Shown: positions 4,381-29,294, counted from the first letter of the stretch. The stretch is DNA of 64,000 nt from an uncultured Armatimonadetes bacterium (GCA_963716175.1 OY970296.1:452031-516030); one strand, 5' to 3'. The notes: generated from the letters alone by a model not told the origin. Translations and numbers: made by a program.

Positions 4381-5316
4381 TTGAGCACAGCCATTGCCAT
4401 GAAGGAAATTGTCGAAGTCTGGCGCTACCGCGAGGTGCTGTGGAACCTGGTGCGCCGCAACCTCAAGGTGCGCTATAAGAACTCCATCCTCGGCTTCCTC
4501 TGGTCTCTCCTTAACCCCCTGATGCAGATCGGGGTCTGGTGGTTCGTCTTCAAGATCATCCTGGATAACCCCGAGCCCAACTACATGGCCTTGCTGATCA
4601 CGGGTTTCTTGCCCTGGCTCTTCTTCTCCCAGACCGTGCTCGACAGCACCGCCTGCGTCACCCAGGAGATGGCGCTGGTGAAGAAGGCCTACTTCCCCCG
4701 CATGGTCCTGCCGCTGTCGGCCTTGTTCTCCAACCTGATCCATCTCGGGCTGGCCTTCGTGGTGCTGCTGGCGCTCTTCGCCGTCTGGCGGGTCGACATC
4801 AACATCAGCTATTTCCTGATCATCCCGGCCACCCTCCTGGTCGCGGTCTTCGCCTATGGCCTGTCGGCGATGCTGGCGGCCTGGAGCGTGTTCTACGCGG
4901 ATGTGAAGTTCATCATCGGTAACCTGCTGGGGCTCTGGTTCTTCCTGACGCCGGTGCTGTACTCGGCGTCCGGTTTGCTCGCCCGGCAGGCCATCTCGGG
5001 ACGGGAGCTGAACTGGCTCCAGCGCCTGATCCAGGCCGGACTGCCGGTGATCAAACAGGTCTACCTCGTGGACCCGGTGACCATTGGCGTGCTCGGGTAC
5101 CGCAGCGGGCTGCTCTACGGCGGCGGAAATCCCCTCCTGGTGCGCGCCGGAGCCACCAGGACCGAGGAGGCGGCGCGTCTGCTGCAGGCCCAGCTCCAGG
5201 CCCAATATCCCATCGGCCACTACATCATCGGGGCCACCATCGTGGCGGTGCTGGTGGCGATCGTCGGCCACCTGATCTTTCGGCGCCTCTCCCACCTCTT
5301 CGCGGAGCGAGGCTGA
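4381..5316 (+). CDS. ABC-2 type polysaccharide/polyol-phosphate export permease (Wzm/TagG-like)
   Basis: Signature RRNLKVRYKNSILGFLWSLLNPLMQIGVWWFVFKII plus six TM helices. Immediately followed by the cognate ATPase. TTG start in track; the alternative ATG is at 4399. Confidence 0.85.
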   Translation: MSTAIAMKEIVEVWRYREVLWNLVRRNLKVRYKNSILGFLWSLLNPLMQIGVWWFVFKIILDNPEPNYMALLITGFLPWLFFSQTVLDSTACVTQEMALVKKAYFPRMVLPLSALFSNLIHLGLAFVVLLALFAVWRVDINISYFLIIPATLLVAVFAYGLSAMLAAWSVFYADVKFIIGNLLGLWFFLTPVLYSASGLLARQAISGRELNWLQRLIQAGLPVIKQVYLVDPVTIGVLGYRSGLLYGGGNPLLVRAGATRTEEAARLLQAQLQAQYPIGHYIIGATIVAVLVAIVGHLIFRRLSHLFAERG

Positions 5317-5324: not shown

Positions 5325-6104
5325 GTGAGCGGAATCGAAATCCGAGACCTATGGAAGCAGTACCGCCGCCCTCATCAGCGGGTGAGCACGCTGAAGGAGG
5401 CGATCGTCGCCTTCCTCCGGGGCCAGACGGGCTATGAGGAGTTCTGGGCGCTGAAGAGCATCTCTTTCACCGTGGACGCAGGAGAGGCAGTGGGCGTGGT
5501 GGGGCCCAACGGGTCCGGCAAGAGCACGCTGCTGGCGCTGATGGCCGGTGTGCTCACTCCCACCCGGGGCACGGTGAAAGTGGGAGGGCGCATCTGCCCC
5601 ATGCTGGAGCTGGGCACCGGGTTCCATCCCGACCTGACGGGCCGGGAGAACGTGTTTCTCAACGCCAGCCTGCTGGGTCTGAGCCGCCGGGAGACGGCTC
5701 GCCGCTATCATGCCATCGTGGACTTCGCGGAGCTGGGCGAGTTCATGGACGCGCCGGTGAGGACCTATTCCAGCGGCATGGTGGTGCGGCTCGGGTTCTC
5801 CGTGGCGATGCACCTCGACCCGGACGTGCTGCTGATTGACGAGGTGCTGAGCGTGGGGGACGAGCACTTCCGGCACAAGTCCTTCGAGCGGCTGGTGCGC
5901 TTCAAACAGGAGGGCAAGACCATCTTCGTGGTCTCCCATGATCTCGGGTCGGTGGAGCGACTCTGCGCGCGCGCGATCTGGCTGGACCACGGCCACATGG
6001 TCATGGACAGCCCCAGTGCCCAGGTGGTCCGGAAGTACCGAACCGCGGTGGAGGAGAGCGAGCGCGCGGCGGAGGCCGGGTCTCCCCATGCCCGCCTGGT
6101 CTGA
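5325..6104 (+). CDS. ABC transporter ATP-binding protein (Wzt/TagH-like, short form without a C-terminal carbohydrate-binding domain)
   Basis: Walker A GPNGSGKST, signature SSGMVVRLGFS and Walker B VLLIDEVLSVGD. GTG start 8 nt after the permease stop. Confidence 0.9.
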   Translation: MSGIEIRDLWKQYRRPHQRVSTLKEAIVAFLRGQTGYEEFWALKSISFTVDAGEAVGVVGPNGSGKSTLLALMAGVLTPTRGTVKVGGRICPMLELGTGFHPDLTGRENVFLNASLLGLSRRETARRYHAIVDFAELGEFMDAPVRTYSSGMVVRLGFSVAMHLDPDVLLIDEVLSVGDEHFRHKSFERLVRFKQEGKTIFVVSHDLGSVERLCARAIWLDHGHMVMDSPSAQVVRKYRTAVEESERAAEAGSPHARLV

Positions 6105-7533
6105 GCTCATCCGGACGGCCGGAAACGTCTTCCTCACCCCAGTCGCGCTCTCCGACCTGCCCGGCCGGGAGACCTGGAGGCGCGCGCTGGTGGTGGGGTC
6201 GGGAGAGCCGGCCAGCATTGCCCAGGCCGCCCAGGCGCTGCGCAGGGCCTGCCCTGCGCTCCTGGTGGATCCGCCGGGTCCCCCGCGGCTGTGGCGAATC
6301 CACCGACGCCGCTACGATGTCGTCTGCCTGCTCCTCACCGGCGAGGGGAGACGCAGGGAAAAGCTGGCGGGACTGCTTTCCGGGGCCCGTGTGGCTCTGG
6401 CCTGCAACCGGAGCGGCCGGTGGTACCAGGTCCACCGGCCGGCCTTCCGGCCGCTCAACCTGCGTTGGTGGGCCCGCCTGGTGCTGGCCGGCATGCTGTC
6501 CGGGTGCTACCTGCGGGTGATGCTGTGGGCTCGCGCCTGCGATCTGCTGTGGCGCTTCGGCCCCATGCCGGCGCCGATTCCGGATCCAGGACCCCCGGTG
6601 GGGCGAGGGACCACTTTCATCGTGCCCACCTACAACCAGCGCCACCTGATGGACTTCTGCTTGCCAGCCCTGGTGGCCGAGGCGGGCCGTCAGCACGAGG
6701 TAATGGTAGTAGATGACGCCAGTGCCGATGGCACGGCCGAGTACGTGCGCAAGCAATACCCGCGCGTGCGCGTGCTCCGGCTGGCGCGCAACCAGGGCTT
6801 CGCGGGGGCGGTGCGAGCCGGCATTGCAGCCAGCCGGACGCCGCTCTTCGCCTTGATCAACACCGATGTGCAGGTGCGGCCCGGGTTCCTGAAAGCGATC
6901 CTGCCGCACTTCGCGCGCGAGGACACCTTCGCGGTGTGCTCCCGTATCGAGCTGCCTGGCGGCTCGCAGATGGAGACCGGCAACGTGGCTCCCGCCTTCT
7001 CAGGAATACTGGAACCCTATCATCTGCCTCCCGATCGCCCCGGCCCGATCCTCTATGCCGGTGGGGCCTCATCGGTCTTCCACCGCGCCCGCTATCAGGC
7101 GCTGGGCGGATTCGAGACCATCTACCGGCCCATCTACTGGGAAGACATTGAACTGGGATACCGCGCCTGGCGGCGCGGGTGGCGTTCGCTCTTCGAGCCC
7201 GGGGCGTCGGTGTGGCATGAGCGCCGCGCGTGGGTCGGCCAGCGACTGGGCGATGTCCAGGCCAACGAGACCTTCCTGAAGAACGGCCTGCTCTTCGTCT
7301 GGAAGAACATACGAGACCGGGGGATGCTATCCCAGCACTGGGTCTACGTCTGTGCCAGGCTCTACCGGGAGGTGCTGGCCGGGGAGCGAATGATGTGCTA
7401 CGCGCTGCTGCGGGCGCTGCCGCTGCTGCCCGCCGCGCTGATCAGGCGGTGGCGAGGGCGACATCGCGGCGACCTGATGGACCGCGACATCCTCGCCCTG
7501 GCCACGCCCTCGCAGGAGCGCCACGGGCCGTGA
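6088..7533 (+). CDS. Family 2 glycosyltransferase with an N-terminal GT9-N-like module
   Basis: GT-A motifs TTFIVPTYNQRH and VVDDASADGT. Start taken at the ATG (6088) overlapping the ATPase stop; the track ORF begins further upstream in the same frame. The N-terminal ~170 aa form the recurring module described in findings. Confidence 0.8.
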   Translation: MPAWSELIRTAGNVFLTPVALSDLPGRETWRRALVVGSGEPASIAQAAQALRRACPALLVDPPGPPRLWRIHRRRYDVVCLLLTGEGRRREKLAGLLSGARVALACNRSGRWYQVHRPAFRPLNLRWWARLVLAGMLSGCYLRVMLWARACDLLWRFGPMPAPIPDPGPPVGRGTTFIVPTYNQRHLMDFCLPALVAEAGRQHEVMVVDDASADGTAEYVRKQYPRVRVLRLARNQGFAGAVRAGIAASRTPLFALINTDVQVRPGFLKAILPHFAREDTFAVCSRIELPGGSQMETGNVAPAFSGILEPYHLPPDRPGPILYAGGASSVFHRARYQALGGFETIYRPIYWEDIELGYRAWRRGWRSLFEPGASVWHERRAWVGQRLGDVQANETFLKNGLLFVWKNIRDRGMLSQHWVYVCARLYREVLAGERMMCYALLRALPLLPAALIRRWRGRHRGDLMDRDILALATPSQERHGP

Positions 7534-9260
7534 GGATCCTTTTCGTCAGCCCCTTCCTCCCCTATCCGCCCACGGCTGGCGGCCACGCGCTGATCTGGGG
7601 CTGGCTGCGGCGCCTTGCCAGCAAGCACGAGATCGCGTTCGTGGGATTCTGCGAGCGAGAGGCGGACGCGGTGGGCGCCGACGAGGTGGCGAAGCACTGC
7701 GCCAGCATGCGAATACGTCTCCGCCGGCCGACGCCGCATGCCTACAGCTCCTTCGCGCAGGTCCCCCGATGGGTGAGCGAGTTCTTCTCGGCAGAGCTAG
7801 CAAGTGACCTGCGCGCGCTGGCGCGAGATTTCAGGCCGGAGGTGGCGCAGTTTCTGAGCACCAACATGGCGCAGTATGCGCGCGCGGTTGATGCCGCGCA
7901 TGTCATCACCGCGGTTGACGTCTCTTTTGTCGCCCATCGTAGGCGGATCGCAGCCGCGCGCGGACTCGAGCGTCTCCAGGCCCGGCTGGAGTGGCTGCGC
8001 ATGCTGCGCTATGAGGCGTCCGTCTTTCGCCGCGCCGATCACGTGATCGCAATGTCGCTCCGAGATGCAGAGATCATCAGGGCCGTCTCGCCTCGGGTGC
8101 CGAGCACCATCGTGCCTCCCGGCGTGGACCGGGAACTGCTCGCGCCCCGGCCGCGCCGGCCGGGGCCAGGCAGAGTGCTCTACCTGGGCCAGATGGAGCA
8201 CTTCCCCAACCTCGATGGTCTGCTCTTCCTCTATCGAGAGATCTGGCCCCGGGTTCGGCGCGCTCATCCAGAAGCTCGTCTCACCGTGGCCGGCCGCGGC
8301 GCGCGGGAGGAGCTGGCGCGCGTCGCGCCGCAGACCCTCGCTGCCATGGAGAGCGACCAGAGTGTGGACCTGGCGGGATTCGTGCCCGACCTCCAGGCGA
8401 CCATGGATCTCACCGCGGTCATGGCCGCGCCCCTGCGACTGGGATCGGGCGTGCGCACCAAGGTGATCGAGGCGATGGCCGCGGGGCTGCCGGTGGTGAC
8501 AACCACCCGGGGCGCGGAGGGCCTGGCGGTTGCGCACGAACGCGAGCTGCTCATCGCGGACGAGCCAGAGCAGTTCGCGCGGGAGCTGGTGCGCCTGCTC
8601 CGAGATCCGGAGCTGCAGGCGCGACTCTCCCGGGCCGGCCGCGAGCTGGCAGCTCGCGAGCATGACAACGATCAACTGGCGGCGCGGCTGGAGCGGGCCT
8701 TGATGGCAGCGGCAGGGTCTGCAGGGCGGGCACGTCTCGCATGCCCGCCGCAGGACGGCGAGGCGCGGGAGATGAGAGTCCTGATCCGATACCTCGCCGG
8801 CTATGTCTTCGACTTCTTCCGGGAGCGGGTGACCGCTGACGATTTCCGCGGCGAGCGCGTGCGCCGCGTCCTGGCGACGGCCGCGCTGGATGCGCGCGGC
8901 CAGGCTGCGGTGCGGTGCATGTTCCCGCAGGCCGTCCTGTATGCCGTCACTGCTCGCGCCAGCCTGGCCCAGGTTCGCCGGGGTCGGTTCGAGGCGAGCT
9001 GCATCTCCATGGCCGGCGGCGGCATGCGAGAGCGCTTGCTGGCTCTGCTCAGCGGCGCCCGGCACCAGCTGCTCATCCCTTCGCCGGACTACATCTACCG
9101 TCTGGGCATGCGGCAGGGAGGCCCGGCCCTCGCCTGGGCGGTGATAGACCGCTTCCTGGTCGCACCTGTCGCTCTGATGTGGTTCATCCTACTGGTTTGC
9201 TGGCTCTATGTGAGCGGATTGGTTGAGCGGACCGCGCAGCCAAAGGCGCAGGGAGGGTAG
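7530..9260 (+). CDS. Family 4 (GT-B) glycosyltransferase with a C-terminal GT9-N-like module and a TM helix
   Basis: VRILFVSPFLPYPPTAGGHA N-terminus and an EX7E-type motif IEAMAAGLPVVTTTRGAEGL. GTGA overlap with the upstream stop. The C-terminal 160 aa are the module plus the hydrophobic helix PVALMWFILLVCWLYVSGL. Confidence 0.8.
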   Translation: MRILFVSPFLPYPPTAGGHALIWGWLRRLASKHEIAFVGFCEREADAVGADEVAKHCASMRIRLRRPTPHAYSSFAQVPRWVSEFFSAELASDLRALARDFRPEVAQFLSTNMAQYARAVDAAHVITAVDVSFVAHRRRIAAARGLERLQARLEWLRMLRYEASVFRRADHVIAMSLRDAEIIRAVSPRVPSTIVPPGVDRELLAPRPRRPGPGRVLYLGQMEHFPNLDGLLFLYREIWPRVRRAHPEARLTVAGRGAREELARVAPQTLAAMESDQSVDLAGFVPDLQATMDLTAVMAAPLRLGSGVRTKVIEAMAAGLPVVTTTRGAEGLAVAHERELLIADEPEQFARELVRLLRDPELQARLSRAGRELAAREHDNDQLAARLERALMAAAGSAGRARLACPPQDGEAREMRVLIRYLAGYVFDFFRERVTADDFRGERVRRVLATAALDARGQAAVRCMFPQAVLYAVTARASLAQVRRGRFEASCISMAGGGMRERLLALLSGARHQLLIPSPDYIYRLGMRQGGPALAWAVIDRFLVAPVALMWFILLVCWLYVSGLVERTAQPKAQGG

Positions 9261-11895
9261 ATGGGCCGCCAGAAACAATGGCGCGGGGACCAGGGTTGAT
9301 GCCGTGAGCCATATCCTTATCTGCGGCGCGGCGGGCTATACCAATCTGGGCGATGATGCCATCCTCTGGGGGATGCTCACTCAGCTGCGGCCAGCGGTCG
9401 GGGGCCGTGCCATCAGGGTGGCCGGGGGCCCAGGGCTGGCGCCGCTGCTGACCCTATTCGGGGCTGCGCCCGTCTCCTACATGGACCGCCCGGAGCTGGC
9501 CCGCGCCGTCGAGGAGGCCGGCCTGGTCATCCTCGGGGGCGGCGGGATGCTGTACGATGTGGATTACGAAGCCAGCCTCGCTCGGTTCTTCGGCGACCCG
9601 GCCGATCGTCCCTGGCTCTATGAGCTCGCCCAGATCGCAGCCGCAGCGCGGGTCGCGGCACGGCCGTTGATGCTGTATGGGATGGGAGCAGGCCCACTGG
9701 TGACAGAGGCGGCGCGGCGGGCGGCGCGGTTCGTCGCAGAGCAAGCCTCGGTGGTCACTGTCCGCGACGCCGGCTCGGCTGATCTGCTGGCGGAATGCGG
9801 CGTGCCGCGGGCCCACGTCCAGGTCGCTGGTGACCCGGCCCTGGCCGTGGCTCCCGGATCGGCGGAGAGCGCGGAGAGCTTCCTCAGGGCCACCGGCATC
9901 GCCGCCCGTCCCAGGCCCTGGATCGCGCTGAACCTGAGGCCGTTGGTGGCGGGCATGGGCATGCCCGCCCTACAGGAGGCACAGCTCGTTGCCCGGGCCG
10001 CAGAGCTGGTGCGCCGGCTCACCGACCGGCTCGCCGCCACGGTGGTGCTGATGCCATTCCAGCGAACCAGACACGATGACCGGGAGGTCCTGGGCGCGGC
10101 GCTGGAGGCGGCCGGGAAGCCCGCTAACGCGCTGCTCGTGGCGCCACCCCCTCTGCCGCCCGATCTGGCGGCCGTGCTGGCGCGCTTCGATCTCGTGGTC
10201 GGGATGCGGCTGCACTCTCTGATGCTGGCCATGAACGGGGCCGTGCCCTTCGTCGGGCTCTGCTATGACCCCAAGGTGGCTGAGTTCGCTCGCGAGGCGG
10301 GCCTGGGCGAGTACCTGCATGCCGTTGATGAACTCGACCCGGAATCGGTCGCAGCTTCGTGCCAGCGCCTATTGAGCCGGCGCGCGGAGGCCTCGGGTCT
10401 GCTGGCTCAGCGCAACGAGCAGATGCGGACCGCTGCCGGGCTCTCGGCCGAACTCGCGGCCTGGCTGCTCGCCCGGAGGACCGGGCTCCCACAGGCGCCC
10501 CGCCCCCGCGGCGCGCGGTCTGCGGCCGCACCGCGGCCGGTGAGGCTGCCGCGGGTGCTGATGCAGATCCGGGCCGACTACCAGGACCTCCCAGGCGGCG
10601 ACACGGTGCAGATGACCCAGACCAGGCGCGCCCTGCAGGAGTTGGGGGTAAGGGCGGAGGTGAGCACCGAGGAAGCGCCTGATCTATCAGCATACGATCT
10701 CGTCCACACCTTCAACCTTGGGAGGCCGGGCGAGCCCTACAGGCACTGCCTGAACGCGATGTCACAGGGCAAGCCGGTGGCGCTTTCTACCGTCTACGCC
10801 GACTTTGGGGAGATGTGGGAGTGGGGCGACTCCGATTACTGGGAGCTGCCGCCGCCAGAGGTGGGGCTGCCGGTGCCCAGGAGGGCGCCGCCGGTGGGGC
10901 CAGTCGAGGCCCGCCGCCGGATGCGCTTGGAAGAGCAGCGGCAGGCCGCCATTGACTGGGCGACGGTCTATCTGCCGAATGGGCAGGGGGAGGCTGACTG
11001 GCTGCACGCCGCCCATGGTATGGACCTGAGCCGGACCGTGGTGGTGCCAAACGCGGTCGCGGACATCTTCTTCGACGCGCGGCCGGAGGCATTCGTGGCC
11101 CGCTGCGGGCTGCGGGATTTCGTCCTATGCGCAGCGCGGGTGGAGAAGCGTAAGAACCAGCTCAGTCTGGTGGCTGCCTTGCGAGGGACCGGCCTGCCTC
11201 TGGTGATCCTGGGGTGGGCGAACCCGGAGGCCTACCGCGATCTCTGCCGCCGCTATGCAGACGAGAATGTGCGGTTTATTGACGGGCTGGCCCACGAGGA
11301 GCTGCCTTCGGCCTACGCCGCGGCCAGGGTGCACGTGCTCGCCGGTTGGTTCGAGACCCCCGGCCTCTCCACCCTGGAGGCGGCCGCCGCCGGCTGCAAT
11401 GTCGTGTCCACCGACCGGGGGCTGGCGCGGGAGTACTTCGGCGACCTGGCCTGGTACTGCGACCCGGGCCGCATCGAGTCCATCCGGGAGGCGGTGCTGG
11501 CCGCCTACCAGGCCCCCCGGTCTGACCGCTTGCGGGACCACGTGTGCCAGCACTACACCTGGCGGCATGCCGCAGAGCGAACGCTGGAGGCCTATCAGCT
11601 CGCACTCGCCCTGCACCAGAGCGGAAGCGATCGCGATCGGCAGCCCGAGCTGCTGGCCGCCGCCCGGCGGCACGCGGACTGGCTGGCGCGGCTGGCCGCC
11701 GACCGTCAGTACGAGGCCGACCAGTTGCGCCAATGGGCCTCCGATTTGGACACGCGCAGGAAGGACCTGGAGGCGGAGGTGCAGCGGCTGCAGCGGGAGC
11801 TGGAACTGGTGACCTCGCGGCGGCTGTATCGGTGGTCGGAATCGGTGGGTCGTGCGGGCTGGGGCCTGCTTCGCGCTCTGAGGATCAAGCGGTGA
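9223..11895 (+). CDS. Polysaccharide pyruvyl transferase (CsaB/WcaK-like) fused to a GT4 glycosyltransferase, with a coiled coil and a conserved C-terminal tail
   Basis: N-terminal HILICGAAGYTNLGDDAILWGML resembles the PS_pyruv_trans signature. The C-terminal half carries GT-B motifs (RVEKRKNQLSLV ... ETPGLSTLEAAAAGCNVVSTD). The start may instead be the GTG near 9304. Confidence 0.8.
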   Translation: MSGPRSQRRREGRWAARNNGAGTRVDAVSHILICGAAGYTNLGDDAILWGMLTQLRPAVGGRAIRVAGGPGLAPLLTLFGAAPVSYMDRPELARAVEEAGLVILGGGGMLYDVDYEASLARFFGDPADRPWLYELAQIAAAARVAARPLMLYGMGAGPLVTEAARRAARFVAEQASVVTVRDAGSADLLAECGVPRAHVQVAGDPALAVAPGSAESAESFLRATGIAARPRPWIALNLRPLVAGMGMPALQEAQLVARAAELVRRLTDRLAATVVLMPFQRTRHDDREVLGAALEAAGKPANALLVAPPPLPPDLAAVLARFDLVVGMRLHSLMLAMNGAVPFVGLCYDPKVAEFAREAGLGEYLHAVDELDPESVAASCQRLLSRRAEASGLLAQRNEQMRTAAGLSAELAAWLLARRTGLPQAPRPRGARSAAAPRPVRLPRVLMQIRADYQDLPGGDTVQMTQTRRALQELGVRAEVSTEEAPDLSAYDLVHTFNLGRPGEPYRHCLNAMSQGKPVALSTVYADFGEMWEWGDSDYWELPPPEVGLPVPRRAPPVGPVEARRRMRLEEQRQAAIDWATVYLPNGQGEADWLHAAHGMDLSRTVVVPNAVADIFFDARPEAFVARCGLRDFVLCAARVEKRKNQLSLVAALRGTGLPLVILGWANPEAYRDLCRRYADENVRFIDGLAHEELPSAYAAARVHVLAGWFETPGLSTLEAAAAGCNVVSTDRGLAREYFGDLAWYCDPGRIESIREAVLAAYQAPRSDRLRDHVCQHYTWRHAAERTLEAYQLALALHQSGSDRDRQPELLAAARRHADWLARLAADRQYEADQLRQWASDLDTRRKDLEAEVQRLQRELELVTSRRLYRWSESVGRAGWGLLRALRIKR

Positions 11896-12968
11896 GACTG
11901 ACTGTCATCATCCCCACCTACAATCGCAGCGCGCTCCTGGGTAGGGCGCTGCGCCTGCTGCTGGATGAGCAGACCGCCGCGCCCAGCGACTACGAGCTTG
12001 TCGTGGTGGACGACGGCTCGACCGACGGCACCCCCGAGGTGGTCAAGGCCGTTGGCGCGCCGGAGTCGCGCCTGCGGTATTTCCGCCAGGAGAACCAGGG
12101 CCCGGCGGCGGCGCGCAACCTGGGCGTGCGAGAGGCGAAGGGCAAGATCGTCCTCTTCACCGGGGATGATTGCCTGCCCGACCGGCGGCTGATCGAGGAG
12201 CACCTGCGGGCGCATGATCGGAGCGGGGACGTGGGCGTGGTGGGGCATGTCGCCTGGCACCCCGACCTGGAGCTGACGCCGCTGATGCTCTTCCTCGATC
12301 AGGGAGCGCAGTTCGGGTTCGGGTACATCAACGACCCTGATCATGTGAGCGCCTGGTCGTTCTACACCGCCAACTGCTCGGTGCAGCGCCATTGGATCGA
12401 GGAGGTGGGTGGGTTCGACGAGGACTTCGAGAATGCGGCCTACGAGGACATCGAGCTGGCTTACCGCATGCAGCAGCGGGGCCTGCGTATCATCTACCAT
12501 CGCCCTGCGCTCACCTATCACCACCACGCGCCCACCCTGGAGGGACACCTGGTGCGCCAGCGTCTCTGCGGCCGGTCCTCGGTGATCTTCTGGCGCAAGC
12601 ATCCGGAGCTGAAGGAGGAGCTGGACATCGTCGAGGCGCAGCGACCCAGATATGCCCTTCAGTTCTTCGAGGCCGTGGGCGCCTATGCCAAGGCGCTGGG
12701 GGTGAGAGAGGTGCTGCGGCAGCAGATCCTGCTCAGGGAACAGGGCCAGGAGGCCGAGGGTGGCCCTGCCCCGGACCCCCAGGCCTGGGTGAGGGAGGCC
12801 CTGGGCACGGCCGACCCTGACAGAGAAGAGCTGATCCGTCTGCGGGCCGAACTCCGGGATATGGAGCAGGAGTGGCAGCGCGTCACCTCTCGCCGCCTCT
12901 ACCGATGGTCGGAAGCGGGGGCGCGGGCCGGGTGGAGCTTCCTGCGGCGGCTGGGGATCAGACCATGA
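11892..12968 (+). CDS. Family 2 glycosyltransferase (paralogue 1) with a coiled coil and a conserved C-terminal tail
   Basis: VRLTVIIPTYNRS and VVVDDGSTDGT (GT-A). GTGA overlap. Ends with the shared tail motif (see findings). Confidence 0.85.
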   Translation: MRLTVIIPTYNRSALLGRALRLLLDEQTAAPSDYELVVVDDGSTDGTPEVVKAVGAPESRLRYFRQENQGPAAARNLGVREAKGKIVLFTGDDCLPDRRLIEEHLRAHDRSGDVGVVGHVAWHPDLELTPLMLFLDQGAQFGFGYINDPDHVSAWSFYTANCSVQRHWIEEVGGFDEDFENAAYEDIELAYRMQQRGLRIIYHRPALTYHHHAPTLEGHLVRQRLCGRSSVIFWRKHPELKEELDIVEAQRPRYALQFFEAVGAYAKALGVREVLRQQILLREQGQEAEGGPAPDPQAWVREALGTADPDREELIRLRAELRDMEQEWQRVTSRRLYRWSEAGARAGWSFLRRLGIRP

Positions 12969-14062
12969 GGCTCAGCATCTTGATCCCGACGTACAACCGG
13001 GCCCAGATGCTGGGCCGCACTATCGCCGGCCTCCTGGACCAGTCGGCCCCTACCGAAGACTACGAGATCGTGGTGGTGGACGATGGCTCCACAGATGATA
13101 CCACCGAGGTGATGGCCGGCCTGAGCCGGCCCGGCGTTGCCCTCCAGTACATTCGCCAGGACAACAAAGGGCGGGGGGCCGCCCGGAATACCGGCCTGCG
13201 AGCTGCGCAGGGCAAGATAGCGCTGTTCATGGGAGATGACTGCATCCCGGACCGCCGCCTGGTGGAGGAGCATCTGCGGGCGCATGACAAGGAGGGGGAT
13301 GTGGCCGTGGTAGGTCATGTCTCGTGGCACCCCGAGCTTCCAGTGACACCCCTGATGCGGTTCCTCGACGAGGGCACCCAGTTCGGTTTCGCTCGCATCA
13401 AGGACCCCGATCACGTCTCTTACTGGTTCTTCTATACCAGCAACTGCTCGCTGCAACGGCACTGGATCGAGGACGTCGGCGGGTTCGACGAGGATTTCGT
13501 GCAGTACGGCTTCGAGGACAATGAGGTCGCGTATCGCATGCAGCGGCGGGGCTTGCGGATCATCTACCGGCCCGCGGCTCACTGCTACCATCATCATGCC
13601 ACCGCGCTGGAGCAGTTCCTGGTACGCCAGTGGCTGTGTGGCAAGGCGGCGGTCTCATTCTGGCGCAAGCACCCGGAGCTGAAGGAGCAACTCGGGATCG
13701 TGGAGGCGGGGCGGGCGACGACAGTCATCCAGCTGTTCGAGGCCACCATGGGCTACGCCCAGGCCCTGGGCGTGAAAGAGGAGCTGCGAGGCGAATCCCC
13801 TCTCGCCCAGGCCGACTTGGAGCGACTCTGGAGCAATGCCGAGATGGCGGAGGCCGGGCGCGCCTGGGCGGTCGAGGCCTTCGGCCCGATCGGCCCTGAG
13901 AAGGTAGAGCTGATCCGGCTGCGGGGCAAGGTTTACCTCATGGCTCAGCAGTGGCAGCGGGTCAGCGCGCGGCGCTTCTACCGCTGGTCCGAGTGGCTGG
14001 CGCGACAAGGATGGGGACTGCTACGCTGCCTGGGTTTCGGTCGCCGCGCCAGGACAGGCTAA
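12965..14062 (+). CDS. Family 2 glycosyltransferase (paralogue 2, collinear with 11892..12968)
   Basis: MRLSILIPTYNRAQ and VVVDDGSTDDT. ATGA overlap. Ends with the shared tail motif (see findings). Confidence 0.85.
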   Translation: MRLSILIPTYNRAQMLGRTIAGLLDQSAPTEDYEIVVVDDGSTDDTTEVMAGLSRPGVALQYIRQDNKGRGAARNTGLRAAQGKIALFMGDDCIPDRRLVEEHLRAHDKEGDVAVVGHVSWHPELPVTPLMRFLDEGTQFGFARIKDPDHVSYWFFYTSNCSLQRHWIEDVGGFDEDFVQYGFEDNEVAYRMQRRGLRIIYRPAAHCYHHHATALEQFLVRQWLCGKAAVSFWRKHPELKEQLGIVEAGRATTVIQLFEATMGYAQALGVKEELRGESPLAQADLERLWSNAEMAEAGRAWAVEAFGPIGPEKVELIRLRGKVYLMAQQWQRVSARRFYRWSEWLARQGWGLLRCLGFGRRARTG

Positions 14063-15702
14063 TGCCGACCGCATCGGTCGTCCTCCTCAACTGGAACGGA
14101 GCTCATCTGCTGCCCACCTGCCTGGCCTCGCTGCGCGCCCAGAGCCGCCCACCGGCGGAGATCATCATGCCGGACAACGGCTCCACCGACGGCTCCCTGG
14201 AGCTGGTGGCGAGGCGCTATCCTGAGGTGCGGGTCATCCGGTTTCCGCGGAATATGGGATTCTGCCTGGCCATGAACGCGGGGATGGAGGCCAGCCACGG
14301 CGAGTTCATCCTCTCGCTCAACAACGATACCGAGCTCGACCAGCATTGCCTCCACGAGCTGGTGTCCGCCATGCGGTCCGATCCCGGGCTGGGGATGTGT
14401 GCGCCCAAGATGATCTACTATGACGACCCCGGGTTGATCAACTCCGCCGGACATGCCTGCGGCCCCGATGGGGTGGTGGTGGACATCGGCCGGGGGCAGA
14501 GAGACGGGAAATGGTTCCGCCATCCCCGGGAGGTGCTGGGCGCCTGCGCGGGCGCGGCCCTCTACCGCCGGGAGATGCTGGCCCAGGTGGGGCTGTTCGA
14601 TCCCGACTTCTTCATCAGCTATGAAGACGCCGACCTGAGCTGGCGGGCGCAGTGGGCGGGGTGGCGTGCGCGCTATGTGCCGACCGCAGTGGTACGGCAC
14701 CGGGAGGGAGTCTCGCGAGGAATCCGCAGCCGTCGCGCGGTGTTCCTGGGGATGCGCAACAGCGTCCACGTATGGACCAAGGACTGGCCGCTGTCCTCTC
14801 TCTGGCATCATCTGCCCGCGATCTGGCGCGGCTGGCGCGCCGCTGCCTTGGAGCTGACGCGCCGGGGTGAGGCCGGGGTGGTGGCGGCGGCGACCTGGGA
14901 CGCGCTGGCGCAGACGCCGCGCATGCTGAACCGGAGGCGGCGGATCGGGCGCAGCAGGTCGGTCGCAGCCAGCAGGTTCGAGGCATTGCTGGAGATGGGC
15001 CGCCACCACACTCGTGGCGATTCTGAGCGACGCGAGGAATCGCCTGCCCTGGACAGCGGGGGCGCTTTAGCGCCCCCGCCCGCGTGCCGCCGGAGGAATG
15101 AACCCGTGCCGACGCGCATCCTCGCCATCTCGCTGGTCCCGCCGGAGACGTTCGCCCGAATATTGCGGGCGGTGCGCGACCAGTATCCAGAGGGGGAACT
15201 GGTGGCATTGCTCGGTTCCGAGGGGCGCTATGACAGCGCCGACGAGGTCATGCTCTGGCGATCCTCCGGCGCCCGAAGGCTGATCAAGGAGCTGCGGCGC
15301 CGGCGGCCTGACCTGGTGGTGGTGGCCCATGGCGGCGACCAGTGCCTGACCCGCGCTTACTGGAAGGCAGTGCTTTTGGCACTGCTGGCGGGAGCGCGGC
15401 AGCAGTTGCTCTGGCGAGACACCTGTAGGGTGGGCATGTCTCTGCATGCCCGCCGCCAGGGGGCGACGCCAGCGGTTCGCGCTTGCTCGAAGGCGGGATT
15501 CGTGCTGCGCGCAGCCGGCCAGGCGGTCGCCCAGTTGGCGGCCGAGGCCTATGTGGCCGCCACAGGCTTGCTGCTGGCGCCTATACTGGCAGCGGTCGCC
15601 ATCACCGATATCACTGAGTACTTGGCGCGGGCCGGGCGGCTGGGGCCGCCACGCGGCCAGCGGGAGAGAAGGAGCGTCCCCCGGCGGCGGCAAACTGGCT
15701 AG
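14062..15702 (+). CDS. Family 2 glycosyltransferase with a C-terminal GT9-N-like module and a TM helix
   Basis: VVLLNWNGAHLL and MPDNGSTDGS (GT-A). TAATG overlap. C-terminal module TRILAISLVPPETF...RRRRPDLVVVAHGGDQ...LLALLAGARQQL, then hydrophobic LLLAPILAAVAITDI. Confidence 0.8.
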   Translation: MPTASVVLLNWNGAHLLPTCLASLRAQSRPPAEIIMPDNGSTDGSLELVARRYPEVRVIRFPRNMGFCLAMNAGMEASHGEFILSLNNDTELDQHCLHELVSAMRSDPGLGMCAPKMIYYDDPGLINSAGHACGPDGVVVDIGRGQRDGKWFRHPREVLGACAGAALYRREMLAQVGLFDPDFFISYEDADLSWRAQWAGWRARYVPTAVVRHREGVSRGIRSRRAVFLGMRNSVHVWTKDWPLSSLWHHLPAIWRGWRAAALELTRRGEAGVVAAATWDALAQTPRMLNRRRRIGRSRSVAASRFEALLEMGRHHTRGDSERREESPALDSGGALAPPPACRRRNEPVPTRILAISLVPPETFARILRAVRDQYPEGELVALLGSEGRYDSADEVMLWRSSGARRLIKELRRRRPDLVVVAHGGDQCLTRAYWKAVLLALLAGARQQLLWRDTCRVGMSLHARRQGATPAVRACSKAGFVLRAAGQAVAQLAAEAYVAATGLLLAPILAAVAITDITEYLARAGRLGPPRGQRERRSVPRRRQTG

Positions 15703-16845: not shown

Positions 16846-19775
16846 GCGCTCCCCGTGCCAGCCTGATCATCTCCACCTGGAATGGCCGACACCTGTTGGA
16901 GACGTGTCTGCCGCGGGTGCTGCGCGCGGTAGAGCAGGCGGGTGGCGACCACGAAGTGATCGTGGTGGACGACGCCAGCTCCAATGACACGGTGGAGTTC
17001 GTCCGGCGCGAGTTCCCCCAGGTCCGGCTGTTGGCCCTGCGGCGCAACCTACGATTCGCGGGGGCGAACAACGCCGCCGCCCGGGCCGCCAGGGGCGAGG
17101 TCCTGGTCTTCCTGAACAACGACATGCTGGTCGAGCCGGACTGCCTGGAACCCTTGCTGCGCCACTTCCAGGATCTCACCGTGTTCGCGGTCACCGCCCA
17201 GATCGAGATGACGCCGCGGCGAGTGGCCGGGGAGGTGATCCGGGAGACGGGACTGGTGAGGGCGAGATTCGAGGACGGGCTGTTCGTGCTGCAGCACGAG
17301 GACGCGACCTCGCAGGAGCCGGTGCGCGTGATCTACGCGGGGGGCGGCTCCAGCGCCTGGCGGCGGGAGGTCTTCTTCGGACTCGGCGCATTCGGCCGCC
17401 TCTTTCGGCCTTTCTACTTCGAGGATCTCGATCTCTCCTACCGGGCCCAGAAGGCGGGGTGGAAAGTGCTCTTCGAGCCCGCCAGCCGCATGACCCACCA
17501 GCACAGACAGACCAATGCCCCGCGGAACTTCCCCGGCGGCTACGTGGACTTGATCTTCGGCAAGAATGGCCTGCTCTTCACGTGGAAGGCACTCACCGAT
17601 CCTGACCTGCTGAGCGCTCATTTCCGGGGGCTCTGGCGCAGGCTGATGCGCTCCCGCGCACACCCGCGGCTGGGGGCCTGCTTCCTGCGCGCGGCGGCCC
17701 AGTTGCCCGAGCTATTAGTGAAACGCCAGCAGGCACGAGCGCAGATGGCGCTCTCCGACAAGGAGGTGCTGCGGCTGGGCGCCAGCCCCCCGCCGCCGGA
17801 GGCGGCCGACGGCGGCGAGCTGCCATATGGCTCTGACGGCACCGGCAAGCGCCTGCTGGTGATCGGGTTCTCGCCCCTGCCCTTCGAGCCCGAGCTCCGG
17901 CTGGGTGCGCTCTGCTTCCGCACCTGGCATCTGGCGCAGGCGTTACTGGCAGAAGGGCACGAGGTGACGGTGGTGGGAGTTCGGATGGCCGCGGCTTACC
18001 GGGAAGAGGCGCAGCGTCCCTCGGTGCTGCGGTTCCGGGGCCGGCACTTCACCTACTACTCGGCCACGCACGCCGCCTTTGAGCCCTCCCCGCGGCCGGC
18101 GGGCAAGGGCAGTGACCTGCTCTCGCGCATCTGCGACCAGTGGCAGCCTGATGGGATCGTCGCCGTCCACGCCTACGGGGCCTGGGCGGCCTCGCGGCTC
18201 AAGACCGGGGCGCCGCTGTGGGCCGACCTGACCGGCTACGCGATGGCGGAAGCCCAGGCGCGCGCGGGCCTGGAGGGCAGCGACGCTCCCATGGCCGAGG
18301 CCTGGCAGCAGGAGCGGGCCGCCCTGGCGCGGGCCGACGTGTTCTCTGTGGTCACGCAGCGCCAGAAGTACGCGCTGATCGGCGAGCTCTTCGCCATCGG
18401 GCGACTGGGAGCCGCGAACTGCGGCGAAGACCGTGTCCATGATATTCCGCTCGCCATCGAGAACCTGCCCTATCGTCATCGGCAGGTGGTGCTGCGAGGG
18501 AAGCTGGTGGGAGAGGACGACTTCGTGATCCTGTGGGCCGGGGGCTACAACACCTGGACGGATGTAGACACGCTCTTCCAGGGGCTGACCGCGGCGATGC
18601 GGCAGCATCCTGGCATCAGGTTCGTTTCCCTGGGGGGCGCGCTGCCGGGTCGGGATGAGCAGACCTTCTATCGCTTTCGCCAGCAGGTCGAGGAAAGCGA
18701 GCTGAGCGGCCGCTTCGTCTTCACCGGCTGGGTGCCCAACGAGGAGGTGCCCAACTACTACTTCGAGAGTGATGTCGGGATCAACATTGATCGCTTCAGC
18801 TACGAGATGCTGATCGGGTGCCGCTACCGCATCCTCGACATGCTGCGCGCCGGGCTGCCGGTGATCACCACCCTGGGCACCGAGATCAGTCACATCGTGC
18901 GCGAGGAGCGGCTGGGTCTGACCTTTGCACCAGGAGACGCGCAAGGCCTGAAAGAGGCCATCCTGACACTGGCGCGAGACGAGGCGCTGCGGCGGCGCTG
19001 CGCCTACCGCGCCAAGGAGCATGTTTTCAGGCACCGCACGGTGGACCAGGTGATGGGGCCTCTGCGGCAATGGGCGCAGGCACCGGAGCGGTCCGCGGAT
19101 CGGATGCCTGTTGCGGCCGAGGCGGCGGGCGACGAGGCCCCGCGCTCTCTCCGCCTGCGAGAGCTGGCGCGATCAGTCACCGCCGGGCTGGCCGATATCG
19201 CGGCCCAGGCCTGGGTTCGGCGGCGCGGTACGCACGCCTGGGGGCTGGACCCGCGAGAGCCCCCACACGCGGTGCTGGTGATCCGGGCCGGGTCTCTCCT
19301 CCTGGTCCGGGAAGTGGTGGCGCGCCTCCGCGCACGCTACCCCGCAGCCGCGACCACGGTGCTGGCTCCCGAGGCCCTGACTGCGGAGACCGCCTACGAG
19401 ACCGGTGCCCGCGTGATCTCCGCGCCCGGCGCGGGGATGGTGAGCTATCGGGTCAGCAGGGCCGCCATCGGCCGGGTGCGGCAAGGAAGGTTCGACACCG
19501 TGGTGGTGGCCGGCGAGGGCAACCGGAGAGCCGAGCTGCTCGCGCTGCTCGCGGGTCCCGCGCGGCGAGTCGAGGTGCGAGACGATGGCGCCGCCCATGT
19601 CTTCTCGTTCGCCGCTTACAAGCCACTCGTCGTGCTGGCCATAGCCATCGCCAGCCTGCTGGAGAAGATCACGCTCACCGCGCTGGTGGGCCTGGTATGG
19701 GGAAGCATCCAACTGGAAGGGCGGCTGTGGAGGTTCCGCCAGCGGCGGGGCGCATCCACGCGCGCCACGCGGTGA
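16842..19775 (+). CDS. Tandem GT2-GT4 fusion glycosyltransferase (977 aa) with a C-terminal GT9-N-like module and a TM helix
   Basis: N-terminal GT-A (LIISTWNGRHLL, VVDDASSNDT); central GT-B (KRLLVIGFSPLPFE ... GLPVITTLGTE); C-terminal module HAVLVIRAGSLLLV...RQGRFDTVVVAGEGN...LLALLAGPARRV; hydrophobic helix VVLAIAIASLLEKITLTALVGLVWG. GTGA overlap with the epimerase stop. Confidence 0.8.
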   Translation: MSAPRASLIISTWNGRHLLETCLPRVLRAVEQAGGDHEVIVVDDASSNDTVEFVRREFPQVRLLALRRNLRFAGANNAAARAARGEVLVFLNNDMLVEPDCLEPLLRHFQDLTVFAVTAQIEMTPRRVAGEVIRETGLVRARFEDGLFVLQHEDATSQEPVRVIYAGGGSSAWRREVFFGLGAFGRLFRPFYFEDLDLSYRAQKAGWKVLFEPASRMTHQHRQTNAPRNFPGGYVDLIFGKNGLLFTWKALTDPDLLSAHFRGLWRRLMRSRAHPRLGACFLRAAAQLPELLVKRQQARAQMALSDKEVLRLGASPPPPEAADGGELPYGSDGTGKRLLVIGFSPLPFEPELRLGALCFRTWHLAQALLAEGHEVTVVGVRMAAAYREEAQRPSVLRFRGRHFTYYSATHAAFEPSPRPAGKGSDLLSRICDQWQPDGIVAVHAYGAWAASRLKTGAPLWADLTGYAMAEAQARAGLEGSDAPMAEAWQQERAALARADVFSVVTQRQKYALIGELFAIGRLGAANCGEDRVHDIPLAIENLPYRHRQVVLRGKLVGEDDFVILWAGGYNTWTDVDTLFQGLTAAMRQHPGIRFVSLGGALPGRDEQTFYRFRQQVEESELSGRFVFTGWVPNEEVPNYYFESDVGINIDRFSYEMLIGCRYRILDMLRAGLPVITTLGTEISHIVREERLGLTFAPGDAQGLKEAILTLARDEALRRRCAYRAKEHVFRHRTVDQVMGPLRQWAQAPERSADRMPVAAEAAGDEAPRSLRLRELARSVTAGLADIAAQAWVRRRGTHAWGLDPREPPHAVLVIRAGSLLLVREVVARLRARYPAAATTVLAPEALTAETAYETGARVISAPGAGMVSYRVSRAAIGRVRQGRFDTVVVAGEGNRRAELLALLAGPARRVEVRDDGAAHVFSFAAYKPLVVLAIAIASLLEKITLTALVGLVWGSIQLEGRLWRFRQRRGASTRATR

Positions 19776-19787: not shown

Positions 19788-20423
19788 ATGGCGCGGCCCG
19801 CGGTGTTTCTCGATCGCGACGGCACCGTGCTGCGCGAGCGCGATTACCTGACATCCGCGCACGAGATGCGGCTGCTGCCAGGGGCAGGAGCTGCGATCCG
19901 CCGGCTGAATGAGGCCGGCTTTGCGGTGGTGGTGATCACGAACCAGTCGGGGATCGCGCGGGGTCTGCTGAGCGAGCGCGACCTCGACCACATGCACCAG
20001 GTCCTGCGCCGGCGACTCGCGCGCTCGGGTGCACAGCTCGACGGCATTTACTACTGCCCCCATCATCCCGAGGCGCCGCTCCGGCGGTATCGCCGCCGCT
20101 GCGGCTGCCGCAAACCGGCGCCCGGCCTGCTACGCCGGGCAGCGCGGGAGCTGAACCTCGATCTCCCACGCTCCTTCGCCATCGGCGACAGCCCACGCGA
20201 CCTGGAGGCAGGGCGGCGCGCCGGTTGCCGCGCGATCCTGGTGCGCACGGGCTATGGCATGCTCACCGAGACCACCGTGAATGCCAGGGCCTTCGACCAC
20301 GTGGCGGACGACCTGCCCGCGGCCGTCACTTGGGTACTGGCGCAGAGGCGGCGGGCATGCAGAGACATGCCCACCCTACAGGAGAGGCAAAGGCGCACAC
20401 AGGCCCCATGCAAGCGACCCTGA
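19788..20423 (+). CDS. gmhB: D-glycero-D-manno-heptose 1,7-bisphosphate phosphatase (HAD-IIIA, GmhB-like)
   Basis: FLDRDGTV, VVVITNQSGIARG and the CxH...C...C zinc-binding insert (YYCPHHPEAPLRRYRRRCGCRKP) match the GmhB/histidinol-phosphatase-like family. Confidence 0.8.
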   Translation: MARPAVFLDRDGTVLRERDYLTSAHEMRLLPGAGAAIRRLNEAGFAVVVITNQSGIARGLLSERDLDHMHQVLRRRLARSGAQLDGIYYCPHHPEAPLRRYRRRCGCRKPAPGLLRRAARELNLDLPRSFAIGDSPRDLEAGRRAGCRAILVRTGYGMLTETTVNARAFDHVADDLPAAVTWVLAQRRRACRDMPTLQERQRRTQAPCKRP

Positions 20424-21349
20424 TCGTGGTCAACTACAATGGGCGGGAGCTGCTGGTGAAATCCGTGCCCGCGGCCCTCGAGGCCGCGCGCCAGGCCGGC
20501 GGTCACCGCGTCGTGGTGGCCAATGACGGCAGCACGGATGACAGCCTCCACTATCTGCCTACCACTCACCCGGAGGTGGATGTGCTCGCCCTTCCCCACC
20601 GCGGCTTCGGCGCCACCTGCAACGCGGCCGTGGCGGCCGCGCAGACAGATGCCGTCCTGCTGCTGAACAGCGATGTCGTGGTCGCCCCGGATTTCCTGCC
20701 GCCCCTGCTTGAGGACCTGACGGGGCGTGATGTCTTCGCGGTCGGAGGCAAGTTCCTCAATCCGGATGGCTCGTTGACCGACGCCCTGGGCAATCGCACC
20801 TCGTGCCAGTGGCGCCGCGGCCTGCCCTACATCCACCACGAGACCGACCCCGCGCTGCTCGCAGCAACTTGTCCCCAGCTCTATGCCAATGGCGCCATGA
20901 TGGCCTTCTGGCGAGATAAGTGGCTCGCGCTCGGCGGCTTCGATCCCCTCTATCGGCCGTTCTACTGGGAGGATGCCGATCTGGGCTATCGCGCCTGGGG
21001 ACGTGGCTGGCGCGTGCTCTACGAACCGGCGAGCGTGGTCTTCCATGCCCAGGGCAGCACCATGAGGCGGACTCACCAGGTTCGCCACATCGAGCTGATG
21101 TCCGCCAAGAACGCCATCCTCTTCACCTGGAAGAATCTGCTCGATCCCGGCTTGCTGCGGCGCGCCCTGGCCGCTCAGGCCCGGTGGGCCGCGGATGACG
21201 TGCTGATCGGAGGCCTGCCGCCCCGCACCCGCGCTTTGCTGTGCGCCTCGCGCCAGCTCGCCGAGGCGGCCCGGGGCCGGGCCCGGGAAGCCCGCGAGCG
21301 CAGGCGCGCCGATTGGGAAATCCTGGCTGCCAGCGGAGCTGATCGGTGA
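20408..21349 (+). CDS. Family 2 glycosyltransferase
   Basis: MQATLIVVNYNGRELL, VVANDGSTDDS and the FYWEDADLGYRA region. Start at the internal ATG overlapping the gmhB 3' end by ~16 nt. Confidence 0.8.
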   Translation: MQATLIVVNYNGRELLVKSVPAALEAARQAGGHRVVVANDGSTDDSLHYLPTTHPEVDVLALPHRGFGATCNAAVAAAQTDAVLLLNSDVVVAPDFLPPLLEDLTGRDVFAVGGKFLNPDGSLTDALGNRTSCQWRRGLPYIHHETDPALLAATCPQLYANGAMMAFWRDKWLALGGFDPLYRPFYWEDADLGYRAWGRGWRVLYEPASVVFHAQGSTMRRTHQVRHIELMSAKNAILFTWKNLLDPGLLRRALAAQARWAADDVLIGGLPPRTRALLCASRQLAEAARGRAREARERRRADWEILAASGADR

Positions 21350-29219: not shown

Positions 29220-29294
29220 TGGTGGCACCGGCTGGGCTCGAACCAGCGACATAGCGGTTATGAACCGCTCGCTCTACCACTGAGCTACGGTGCC
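29220..29294 (-). tRNA. tRNA-Met, anticodon CAT (elongator type, or tRNA-Ile2 if lysidinylated)
   Basis: Reverse complement: GGCACCG-TAGCTCAGTGGTAGAGCG-AGCGGTTCATAACCGCT-ATGTC-GCTGGTTCGAGCCCAGC-CGGTGCC-ACCA. 7-bp acceptor stem, GTTCGAG T-loop, encoded CCA. Position 1-72 is base-paired, so it is not an initiator tRNA. Confidence 0.8.

Follow-up and report, generated by a model that had tools for sequence, protein, structure and literature searches.

We analysed a 64,000-nucleotide (nt) stretch of DNA from an uncultured Armatimonadetes bacterium (GCA_963716175.1 OY970296.1:452031-516030), which is called the window throughout. Its plus strand carries a glycan operon consisting of an ABC-2 permease and an ATP-binding cassette (ABC) ATPase, then nine glycosyltransferase (GT) proteins, an epimerase, and a HAD phosphatase. 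Three consecutive genes of this operon encode proteins with the same C-terminus, V-T-S-R-R-L-Y-R-W-S-E-x5-G-W-x2-L-R-x-L-G, here called the tail. The first gene, P1 (9223..11895 as the listed open reading frame (ORF), plus strand), encodes a polysaccharide pyruvyltransferase joined to a GT4 enzyme of the GT-B fold, a stalk, and the tail. Comparison with the orthologue P0008 suggests that the true start of P1 is probably a GTG at ~9295 or 9304. P1 is followed on the same strand by GT2-A (11892..12968), whose GTG start overlaps the P1 stop (GTGA), and by its paralogue GT2-B (12965..14062), whose ATG overlaps the GT2-A stop (ATGA). The tail genes are translationally coupled by the overlaps GTGA, ATGA, and TAATG.

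Counted in frame, starting with the V of VTSRR and ending with the last codon, the hinge and foot of the tail occupy 11809..11892 in P1 (VTSRRLYRWSESVGRAGWGLLRALRIKR), 12882..12965 in GT2-A (VTSRRLYRWSEAGARAGWSFLRRLGIRP), and 13961..14059 in GT2-B (VSARRFYRWSEWLARQGWGLLRCLGFGRRARTG), all on the plus strand. The three C-termini read as a preliminary description of this DNA had quoted them, and the motif is real. In all six frames of the window, the expression R[RK][LFIMV][YFW]RW[ST]E matched the three tails only, and so did the looser patterns RW[ST]E-x3-8-GW, [LF]YRW, and YR[WFY][ST]-x4-10-[WFY]-x2-4-[RK]. The short pattern [YFW]RW[ST] gave three unrelated matches beyond the tails, and W-x1-3-LR-x-LG matched in the two GT2 tails only. 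No Pfam or NCBIfam model covered the tail, and its profile found nothing significant among the PDB sequences (best E = 0.43). The anatomy of the tail has three parts: a coiled-coil stalk, an Arg-only hinge (TSRRLYRW), and a cationic amphipathic helix of ~20 residues, the foot.

Enzyme domains and the stalk, hinge and foot

The PS_pyruv_trans domain (PF04230) of P1 was found at aa 41-349 (nt 9343-10269) with 103.8 bits against a cut-off of 25.3, and Glycos_transf_1 (PF00534) at aa 632-765 with 55.8 bits against 26.4. An AlphaFold2 (AF2) model and fold comparison showed a GT-B fold for the C-terminal half. The CsaB-like match of P1 remained below the NCBIfam CsaB equivalog cut-off (143 vs 213 bits). 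Both GT2 proteins matched PF00535 (104.8 and 110.4 bits, cut-off 23.3) and stayed below the EpsD equivalog cut-off (199 and 198 vs 370 bits); the EpsD model aligns with aa 1-242 only, and the tail lies outside it. GT2-A has a GT-A fold in its AF2 model, with a mean predicted local distance difference test (pLDDT) score of 92. The domains had thus been assigned correctly before. The three catalytic scaffolds counted at that time are two, GT-B in P1 and GT-A in the GT2s, because both GT2s are the same scaffold.

GT2-A is identical to the database protein P0014 and GT2-B to P0070. The two are full-length paralogues with 60% identity over 359 aa (E = 2e-157), which agrees with their earlier reading as collinear duplicates. 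In the related loci L001 and L015, synteny with the window is complete apart from a single tail-bearing GT2 copy (L001 11667-12767 and L015 11539-12639, compared with 11892-14062 in the window). The GT2-A/GT2-B duplication is specific to this lineage, because L001 and L015 have one copy. L015 lies in a complete Armatimonadota genome, and there the pyruvyltransferase was called as a separate 345-aa protein (8956-9993) with neither stalk nor tail. The GT4, stalk, and tail follow 8 nt downstream in a different frame (10001-11542). The separation may be real, or it may come from a frameshift in a long-read assembly.

The segment before the tail is a real coiled coil whose length varies by whole heptads. 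The P1 stalk (11629..11808, plus strand) is the pre-tail part of a single predicted helix of ~63 residues (P1 aa 803-865) and contains the conserved anchor HADWLARLAAD. Hydrophobic occupancy was 0.57 at its heptad a/d positions and 0.14 at the others. For the C-terminal half of P1, AF2 gave helix H364-426 (pLDDT 88-96), a loop at RRLYRWS, and helix H434-446, with pLDDT values of 71-85 for the tail. The short coiled coil of GT2-A lies at 12816..12881 (plus strand, aa 309-330) and that of GT2-B, assigned from heptad a/d occupancy, at 13895..13960 (plus strand). Their a/d occupancy was 0.86 in both, against 0.06 and 0.22 at other positions, respectively. The AF2 model of GT2-A contained helix H309-333, a kink at R334, and helix H335-353, with a tail pLDDT of 87-95. 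In the monomer models of both enzymes, a long helix is interrupted at the SRR motif and a further helix lies at the terminus. A heptad region of ~40 residues had been described before each tail; the heptads stand, and the length is corrected to a ~63-residue helix in P1 and ~25 residues (3 heptads) in the GT2s.

Among P1 orthologues, the distance from the anchor to TSRR was 26, 33, 40, 47, 61, or 68 residues, all equal to 5 mod 7, with one exception of 57, so that six of the seven distinct lengths fall in one class. The probability for five or more of the six other distinct lengths to fall in the residue class of the first one is ~3e-4, although the lengths are not phylogenetically independent. 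With ~1.5 Å per residue, the 63-residue helix of the window P1 would be ~9 nm long, and the 42-residue range among the orthologues would correspond to ~6 nm. In the GT2 orthologues, the distance from W299 to R334 was 35 residues in 62 of 78 proteins and 28, 42, 49 or 32, 38, 39 residues in the rest; at 32, 38, and 39, the indel falls within the loop that precedes the coil. A parallel coiled coil tolerates indels that preserve the heptads. Since the indels are quantised in heptads, the register has to be maintained along the whole stalk, as it would be in such a coil, and this behaviour of the sequence points to parallel oligomerisation of the stalk.

The tail is strongly amphipathic and cationic, as had been proposed and as expected for a membrane-interface helix. 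Over the 22 residues from RR, the foot had a hydrophobic moment of 0.67-0.72, a net charge of +3, and a periodicity peak at 100-105 degrees. The moment of the P1 foot (0.72) was reached by 40 of 20,000 composition-preserving shuffles and that of the GT2-B foot (0.67) by 63 of 20,000 (p about 0.002-0.003). On a helical wheel read from the sequence, the apolar arc covers ~180 degrees, with W and Y on its edges and Arg on the other face. The most conserved positions of the GT2 foot (Y337, E341, A344, W348, L351, and G355) form an i+3/i+4 stripe. A transmembrane (TM) anchor was ruled out by the mean hydrophobicity of the tail (~ -0.2).

Distribution, conservation and age of the tail

HMMER was run with a profile built from the three tails against 1.84 billion representative proteins (E <= 0.001). 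The profile matched only 12 proteins, all of them P1-type, GT2-type, or short fragments. A word-indexed search with the same profile returned one 45-aa fragment only, its index being too coarse for a 50-aa query. With full-length GT2-A as query, 1960 homologues were found at E <= 1e-10, and the canonical tail was present in 82 of the best 120 of these 1960. The full-length carriers were at least 52% identical to GT2-A, and the more distant homologues among the best 120 (~300 aa) mostly ended without the tail. The possibility, raised in the preliminary description, that the tail is a general GT2 C-terminus fails here, as homologues at 51% identity or less mostly lack it. Many of the tail-less homologues (~300 aa) had a more hydrophobic C-terminal helix (Mann-Whitney p = 0.04).

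Five distant proteins among the best 120 (P0100, P0101, P0103, P0104, and P0108) had longer coiled coils and a diverged basic end helix, (R/K)VK(S/A)S-x-x-Y-(R/K). A search with the GT4 half of P1 gave a similar gradient: orthologues at 57% identity or more had the canonical tail, P0150-P0153 (46-50% identity) had much longer coils ending ...I(T/A)(S/A)RRLYRW(S/G)E(W/R)LA..., and in GT4s more distant still the terminal helix was short, basic, and of another kind, or absent. The canonical form was confined, in the proteins found, to the P1-type and GT2-type families and to short fragments. One metagenomic protein of 108 aa, P0007, carried a GT2-type tail after an N-terminus that, as read from the sequence, resembles a UvrC fragment; it is probably a chimeric contig or a gene-call artefact and not a third scaffold. 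The tail may resemble the widespread S-x-S-W-R-x-T-x-P-L-R motif seen after the coiled coils of other glycan enzymes.

At the DNA level, a degenerate pattern for VTSRRLYRW was searched in one genome per species; it is biased to CGN, CTN, and TCN codons and is not exhaustive. Eight loci matched, and seven of them were real tails. These seven came from metagenome-assembled genomes (MAGs) labelled Armatimonadota (including Candidatus Hebobacteria), 'uncultured bacterium' or, once, Bacillota. The eighth locus (L003 4567-4749, from an Abditibacteriaceae MAG) contained an exact VTSRRLYRW in a 61-aa ORF outside any glycosyltransferase context, and is either a chance match or a relic. Wherever both sides were visible (L001, L002, L006, L007, L008, L010, and L015), the tailed P1-type gene stood directly upstream of the tailed GT2-type gene.

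A more distant lineage showed another arrangement. At L012 1-3347 (also L013), a protein of pyruvyltransferase, GT4, long coil, and tail is followed by a 70% identical paralogue of GT4, long coil, and tail. Both proteins end ...EIEAI(T/A)SRRLYRWSE(R/W)LAL..., the next gene encodes a radical SAM/SPASM enzyme, and no tail-bearing GT2 follows. This pair was unusable for the co-variation analysis given below, because the two are 70% identical GT4 paralogues and not independent scaffolds.

Conservation was calculated from 79 GT2 orthologues and 21 P1-type tails. In the GT2 tails, S333, R334, R335, L336, Y337, R338, E341, A344, W348, L351, and G355 were conserved at 91-100% (n=79). R334 and R338 were invariant, R335 was 99% Arg, and a Lys substitute was never seen. 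The GT2 linker (aa 241-330) was the most variable region of the protein, with a mean entropy of 1.2-1.8. In the P1-type tails, T2, L6, R8, and W9 were found in 21 of 21, S3, R4, A14, W18, L21, and R22 in 20 of 21, and R5, S10, A16, G17, and L24 in 19 of 21; position 11, which is Glu in the GT2s, was free. Judged from these alignments, the tail residues are conserved to the level of catalytic residues.

The tails clustered by enzyme type and not by genome. P1-type proteins end in ...LRALG(V/I)KR, and the GT2-type tails extend 3 to 8 residues further. Nucleotide identity between the tails was 65-69%. Over 25 tail codons, P1 and GT2-A have 18 residues in common and 69% nucleotide identity; the codons differ at 12 of these 18 residues, and of the six that are identical, two encode Trp, which has a single codon. 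Because the shared residues mostly use different codons, the comparison indicates an old divergence under purifying selection and not a recent duplication. A recent duplication that included the 3' end of the first gene had been named earlier as a possible origin. It fails on these 12 of 18 codons, and both families keep the tail across many MAGs. The presence of the shared tail on unrelated folds, GT-B/GT4 and GT-A/GT2, is confirmed, and the tail is under selection.

Cross-type identity at the variable positions was 0.44 for tails of the same genome and 0.43 for tails of different genomes (permutation p = 0.34, n = 8). Since the two values are equal, the data show neither gene conversion nor detectable pairwise co-evolution. 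A scaffold for a multi-enzyme complex, as suggested before, is not supported; within a genome, no co-variation was seen between the variable positions of its two tails. A full-length hetero-coiled-coil of P1 and GT2 is unlikely, because the stalk lengths differ (26-68 residues in P1, mostly 35 in the GT2s).

Proposed function of the stalk, hinge and foot

In the explanation that we favour and consider reasonably probable, a stalk that oligomerises and a hinge lead to a cationic amphipathic foot in the plane of the membrane, and the three together would hold soluble GT-A and GT-B enzymes against the cytoplasmic membrane, next to Wzm/Wzt, the permease and ATPase types found at the operon head. 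The module would tether otherwise soluble GTs where the polyprenol-linked glycan is built for Wzm/Wzt export. The stalk, an amphipathic heptad helix, would form a parallel coiled coil, most simply a homo-oligomer, and would set the height of the catalytic domain above the membrane, by ~25 residues in the GT2s and by ~63 residues (roughly 9 nm) in P1. The Arg-only hinge T-S-R-R-L-Y-R-W would break the helix and turn the chain, and its arginines and aromatics would lie at the level of the lipid phosphates. The last ~20 residues would form the foot, a cationic amphipathic helix in the plane of the membrane interface with Trp/Tyr at the polar/apolar boundary. The module would have been acquired once by each of the two families, which are unrelated and whose genes stand side by side as a conserved pair; strong purifying selection has retained it since, presumably because both enzymes have to work at the same membrane site. 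The anatomy of the sequence, its conservation, the heptad quantisation, the amphipathicity, the synteny, and the age of the module were established from the data, and binding to the membrane, the oligomeric state suggested by the heptad behaviour, and the geometry belong to the proposed part of the model. The more hydrophobic C-terminal helices of tail-less GT2 homologues weakly favour the membrane reading.

Several points weigh against a purely lipid-binding tail. Generic membrane-binding amphipathic helices usually conserve physical chemistry rather than sequence, whereas in this tail the residues T, S, R, R, L, R, and W are near-invariant across two unrelated families, with Arg never replaced by Lys. 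The i+3/i+4 stripe, with its small residues and the GT2 Glu, looks more like a specific helix-helix or ligand contact. In addition, the GT2 tail may pack on protein instead of lying free, because its pLDDT was 87-95 in the monomer model.

These observations lead to a tentative alternative, which we regard as possible without expecting it: the tail would be a sequence-specific docking tag whose hinge and foot stripe bind one common partner and so recruit a GT-A and a GT-B enzyme into one complex. Candidate partners are Wzm/Wzt, the TM-anchored GTs of the operon that carry a second appended element (module A, described below), the tails themselves, or the pyrophosphate of the undecaprenyl pyrophosphate (Und-PP) acceptor, and such docking is compatible with membrane binding. 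The hinge residues Arg (never Lys), Thr, Ser, Leu, and Trp, near-invariant in both families, fit a docking tag, as do the a/d-like stripe, which is conserved and includes the small A344 and G355, the strict adjacency of the two tail-bearing genes wherever both are visible, and the confinement of this form of the tail to two families among the 1.84 billion representative proteins. There are also precedents. The membrane-proximal C-terminal region of WbdD serves to recruit WbdA (PMC3482155), and basic residues of the amphipathic 'ruler helix' of PglH are reported to bind the lipid-linked pyrophosphate (PMC5792488). However, the tails cluster by enzyme type, their within-genome identity of 0.44 does not exceed the 0.43 between genomes (p = 0.34, n = 8), the stalk lengths of P1 (26-68) and GT2 (mostly 35 residues) are mismatched, and the partner is so far only a candidate.

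A WbdD-like molecular ruler was considered for P1 only, where we find it doubtful. The order of P1, with a putative modifying enzyme at the distal N-terminus, then GT4, coiled coil, and membrane foot, would suit such a ruler, and its stalk varies between lineages by whole heptads only, over a range of 42 residues or ~6 nm. A terminal pyruvate, added by WbbZ, is known to end the chains of one ABC-dependent O antigen (PMC10629545), and coiled-coil proteins mark terminator/ruler systems (PMC11231755). On the other side stands the Wzt-like ATPase (5325-6104, plus strand), which follows the Wzm-like ABC-2 permease (4381-5316, plus strand) at the operon head. It is short (259 aa) and had only ABC_tran and AAA-type matches (aa 43-174) in the Pfam scan; no cap-reading carbohydrate-binding module was found in it by the domain scan. 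Its counterparts, in the same operon-head arrangement of Wzm and Wzt, are of a similar small size, with 256 aa (L001) and 262 aa (L015). The P1 stalk, moreover, would span ~6-13 nm across the orthologues, against ~20 nm in WbdD (PMC5082667). The separate 345-aa pyruvyltransferase call in L015, without stalk or tail, also counts against a ruler, and whether that split is real bears on whether the stalk can be a ruler for pyruvylation. The ruler-like role proposed earlier for the coiled coils is plausible in P1 alone and is weakened by a Wzt that lacks the carbohydrate-binding module. The shared element itself is not a ruler, because the GT2s have the same foot on a 3-heptad stalk.

The docking and ruler ideas can be combined, in a form that we consider rather unlikely. 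The Arg-only hinge and the stripe would be a portable 'address tag' for one common receptor, and the P1 stalk would be a pyruvate-capping ruler that works without a cap-reading Wzt. The receptor candidates would be the TM-anchored module-A GTs, Wzm/Wzt, or the Und-PP head group, and the role would be akin to that of docking domains or encapsulation peptides.

It is quite improbable that the tail folds back and donates arginines to the active site upon membrane contact, as in TagA. The high pLDDT of the GT2 tail (87-95) in the monomer model and the invariant arginines would agree with this, and the TagA appendage does bind the membrane and supply Arg221 to the active site (PMC6493773). The same tail, however, stands on GT-A and GT-B folds, whose active sites differ, and in P1 it cannot reach the active site in cis because a continuous 63-residue helix lies between the GT4 domain and the tail. 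The weakest explanation, a functionless product of recent local duplication, 3'-end gene conversion, or chance, is suggested by the adjacency of three genes of which two are paralogous, but it is refuted by a tail nucleotide identity of only 65-69% with 12 of 18 P1/GT2-A codons different, by retention of the tail in at least seven other loci and ~80 GT2 orthologues, by the grouping of tails by enzyme type, and by the uniqueness of the motif in the six frames of the window.

Two further candidates were rejected. An encapsulation or cargo-loading peptide does not fit, as the operon genes that were scanned included none for a shell or an encapsulin, and the substrates of these enzymes are lipid-linked. 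A C-terminal degron would explain neither the heptad stalk nor the amphipathicity.

Relation to known systems and the neighbouring genes

The closest design is that of WbdD, in which a coiled coil is followed by a C-terminal membrane-associated amphipathic helix (PMC11231755, PMC5082667) and changes in coiled-coil length are functionally meaningful (PMC11231755, PMC5082667, PMC3482155). WbdD (E. coli O9a / K. pneumoniae O3) resembles P1, as do the terminators WbbB, O4 ORF7, and O7 ORF6, in having catalytic module(s), an extended coiled coil, which in P1 is probably parallel, and an amphipathic C-terminus in a Wzm/Wzt operon, and the P1 stalk also varies in length, by whole heptads. The extended coiled coil of this type was found for P1 only, with its 63-residue AF2 helix, heptad periodicity, and quantised lengths. 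A terminating enzyme would correspond to PS_pyruv_trans, which lies at the P1 N-terminus, distal to GT4 and stalk, and was called as a separate gene in L015. In contrast to WbdD, P1 has no sequence or domain homology to it, no kinase, methyltransferase, or Kdo-transferase was found by Pfam and NCBIfam, and the stalk is shorter. WbdD-type systems use a carbohydrate-binding module of Wzt to read the cap, whereas the Wzt here is without such a module. P1 is not a member of the WbdD family, because homology is absent and the cap-reading feature of Wzt was not found. In addition, a second, unrelated enzyme (GT2) has the same foot here, and the cited accounts of WbdD-type systems describe no foot shared in this way.

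Amphipathic tethers of the KpsC, TagA, and WecG type form a functional class and not a homology family. Their features, a high moment, a positive charge, and a variable linker before the terminal helix, are all present in the sequence of the tail. KpsC has a C-terminal amphipathic helix on a flexible or variable tether, for which membrane association is predicted and whose removal gave a soluble, active enzyme (PMC10148158). The tail is similar to it as a C-terminal amphipathic helix on a soluble GT of an ABC-transporter-dependent pathway (group 2 capsule in the case of KpsC), but KpsC has neither a coiled-coil stalk nor a sequence-specific hinge common to different enzymes. In TagA of wall teichoic acid synthesis, the acceptor is polyprenol-PP-linked, and peripheral membrane association depends on a conserved Arg-rich helical appendage at the C-terminus, without which the protein becomes soluble; this appendage packs against the catalytic domain of TagA itself, where it completes the active site (PMC6493773). 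The tail described here, unlike that of TagA, occurs on two folds, and in P1 it would be separated from the catalytic domain by ~9 nm of predicted helix.

The amphipathic helix of PglH from the C. jejuni N-glycan pathway is reported to attach the enzyme to the membrane and to bind lipid-linked pyrophosphate through basic residues (PMC5792488). By analogy, pyrophosphate binding is a possible role of the RR-x-x-R hinge. The PglH helix is internal to a GT-B fold, however, and is neither a C-terminal stalk and foot nor homologous to them. With the WbbZ/CsaB-type pyruvyltransferases, P1 shares the PF04230 domain and the CsaB-like match; it differs from them in its fusion to GT4, stalk, and foot and in falling below the CsaB equivalog cut-off.

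A coiled coil with a C-terminal amphipathic helix in an ABC-dependent pathway is a known design, seen in WbdD. Different from the known cases are the reuse of one recognisable module on GT-A and GT-B enzymes encoded side by side, the unusually sequence-specific hinge, and the heptad-quantised series of stalks. The gathering and ordering of soluble GTs at the membrane in ABC-dependent pathways is poorly understood, and what is known comes from a small number of proteobacterial models, mainly WbdD/WbdA, WbbB, and KpsC. The same physical solution is found here in an uncultured phylum, as a module on two unrelated folds. If the hinge is a recognition element, the module would be a ~30-residue tag that targets enzymes to polyprenol-linked glycan synthesis and would be useful for glycoengineering. 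If it is not, the tail is still a clean natural case of heptad-quantised stalk evolution and provides a candidate pyruvyltransferase ruler.

The four other multi-domain GTs of the operon have a different appended element, module A, which ends in a hydrophobic helix. It is N-terminal once and C-terminal three times, and its copies in the window lie at 6163-6627, 8772-9257, 15112-15699, and 19266-19772. In related loci, module A is encoded as stand-alone ORFs (L001 8195-8716 and 13742-14320; L015 6714-7220 and 13612-14130). The window copies of ~155-195 aa look like half a Rossmann fold followed by a TM-like hydrophobic helix, with motifs that include R-(F/Y)-D and LLALL(S/A)GAR. Module A had no Pfam or NCBIfam match; it may resemble GT9 heptosyltransferases in their N-terminal half. 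Possibly it provides this assembly line with a second membrane-tethering device. Taking tail and module A together, all seven GT proteins examined for an appended candidate tether have one, out of nine in the operon, which also has a GT2 at 20225-21349 and a GT4 at 21842-23005; this supports the membrane reading of the tail.

Outside the glycan operon, the minus strand encodes a 663-aa polytopic membrane protein of unassigned family (44267-46258), which coincides with the strongest AT skew of the window (+0.29, 44-46 kb). A single tRNA (29223-29294, minus strand), a 756-aa protein with TPR repeats (29360-31630, minus strand), and a LonB/LonC-like AAA protease (33717-36269, plus strand) look ordinary.

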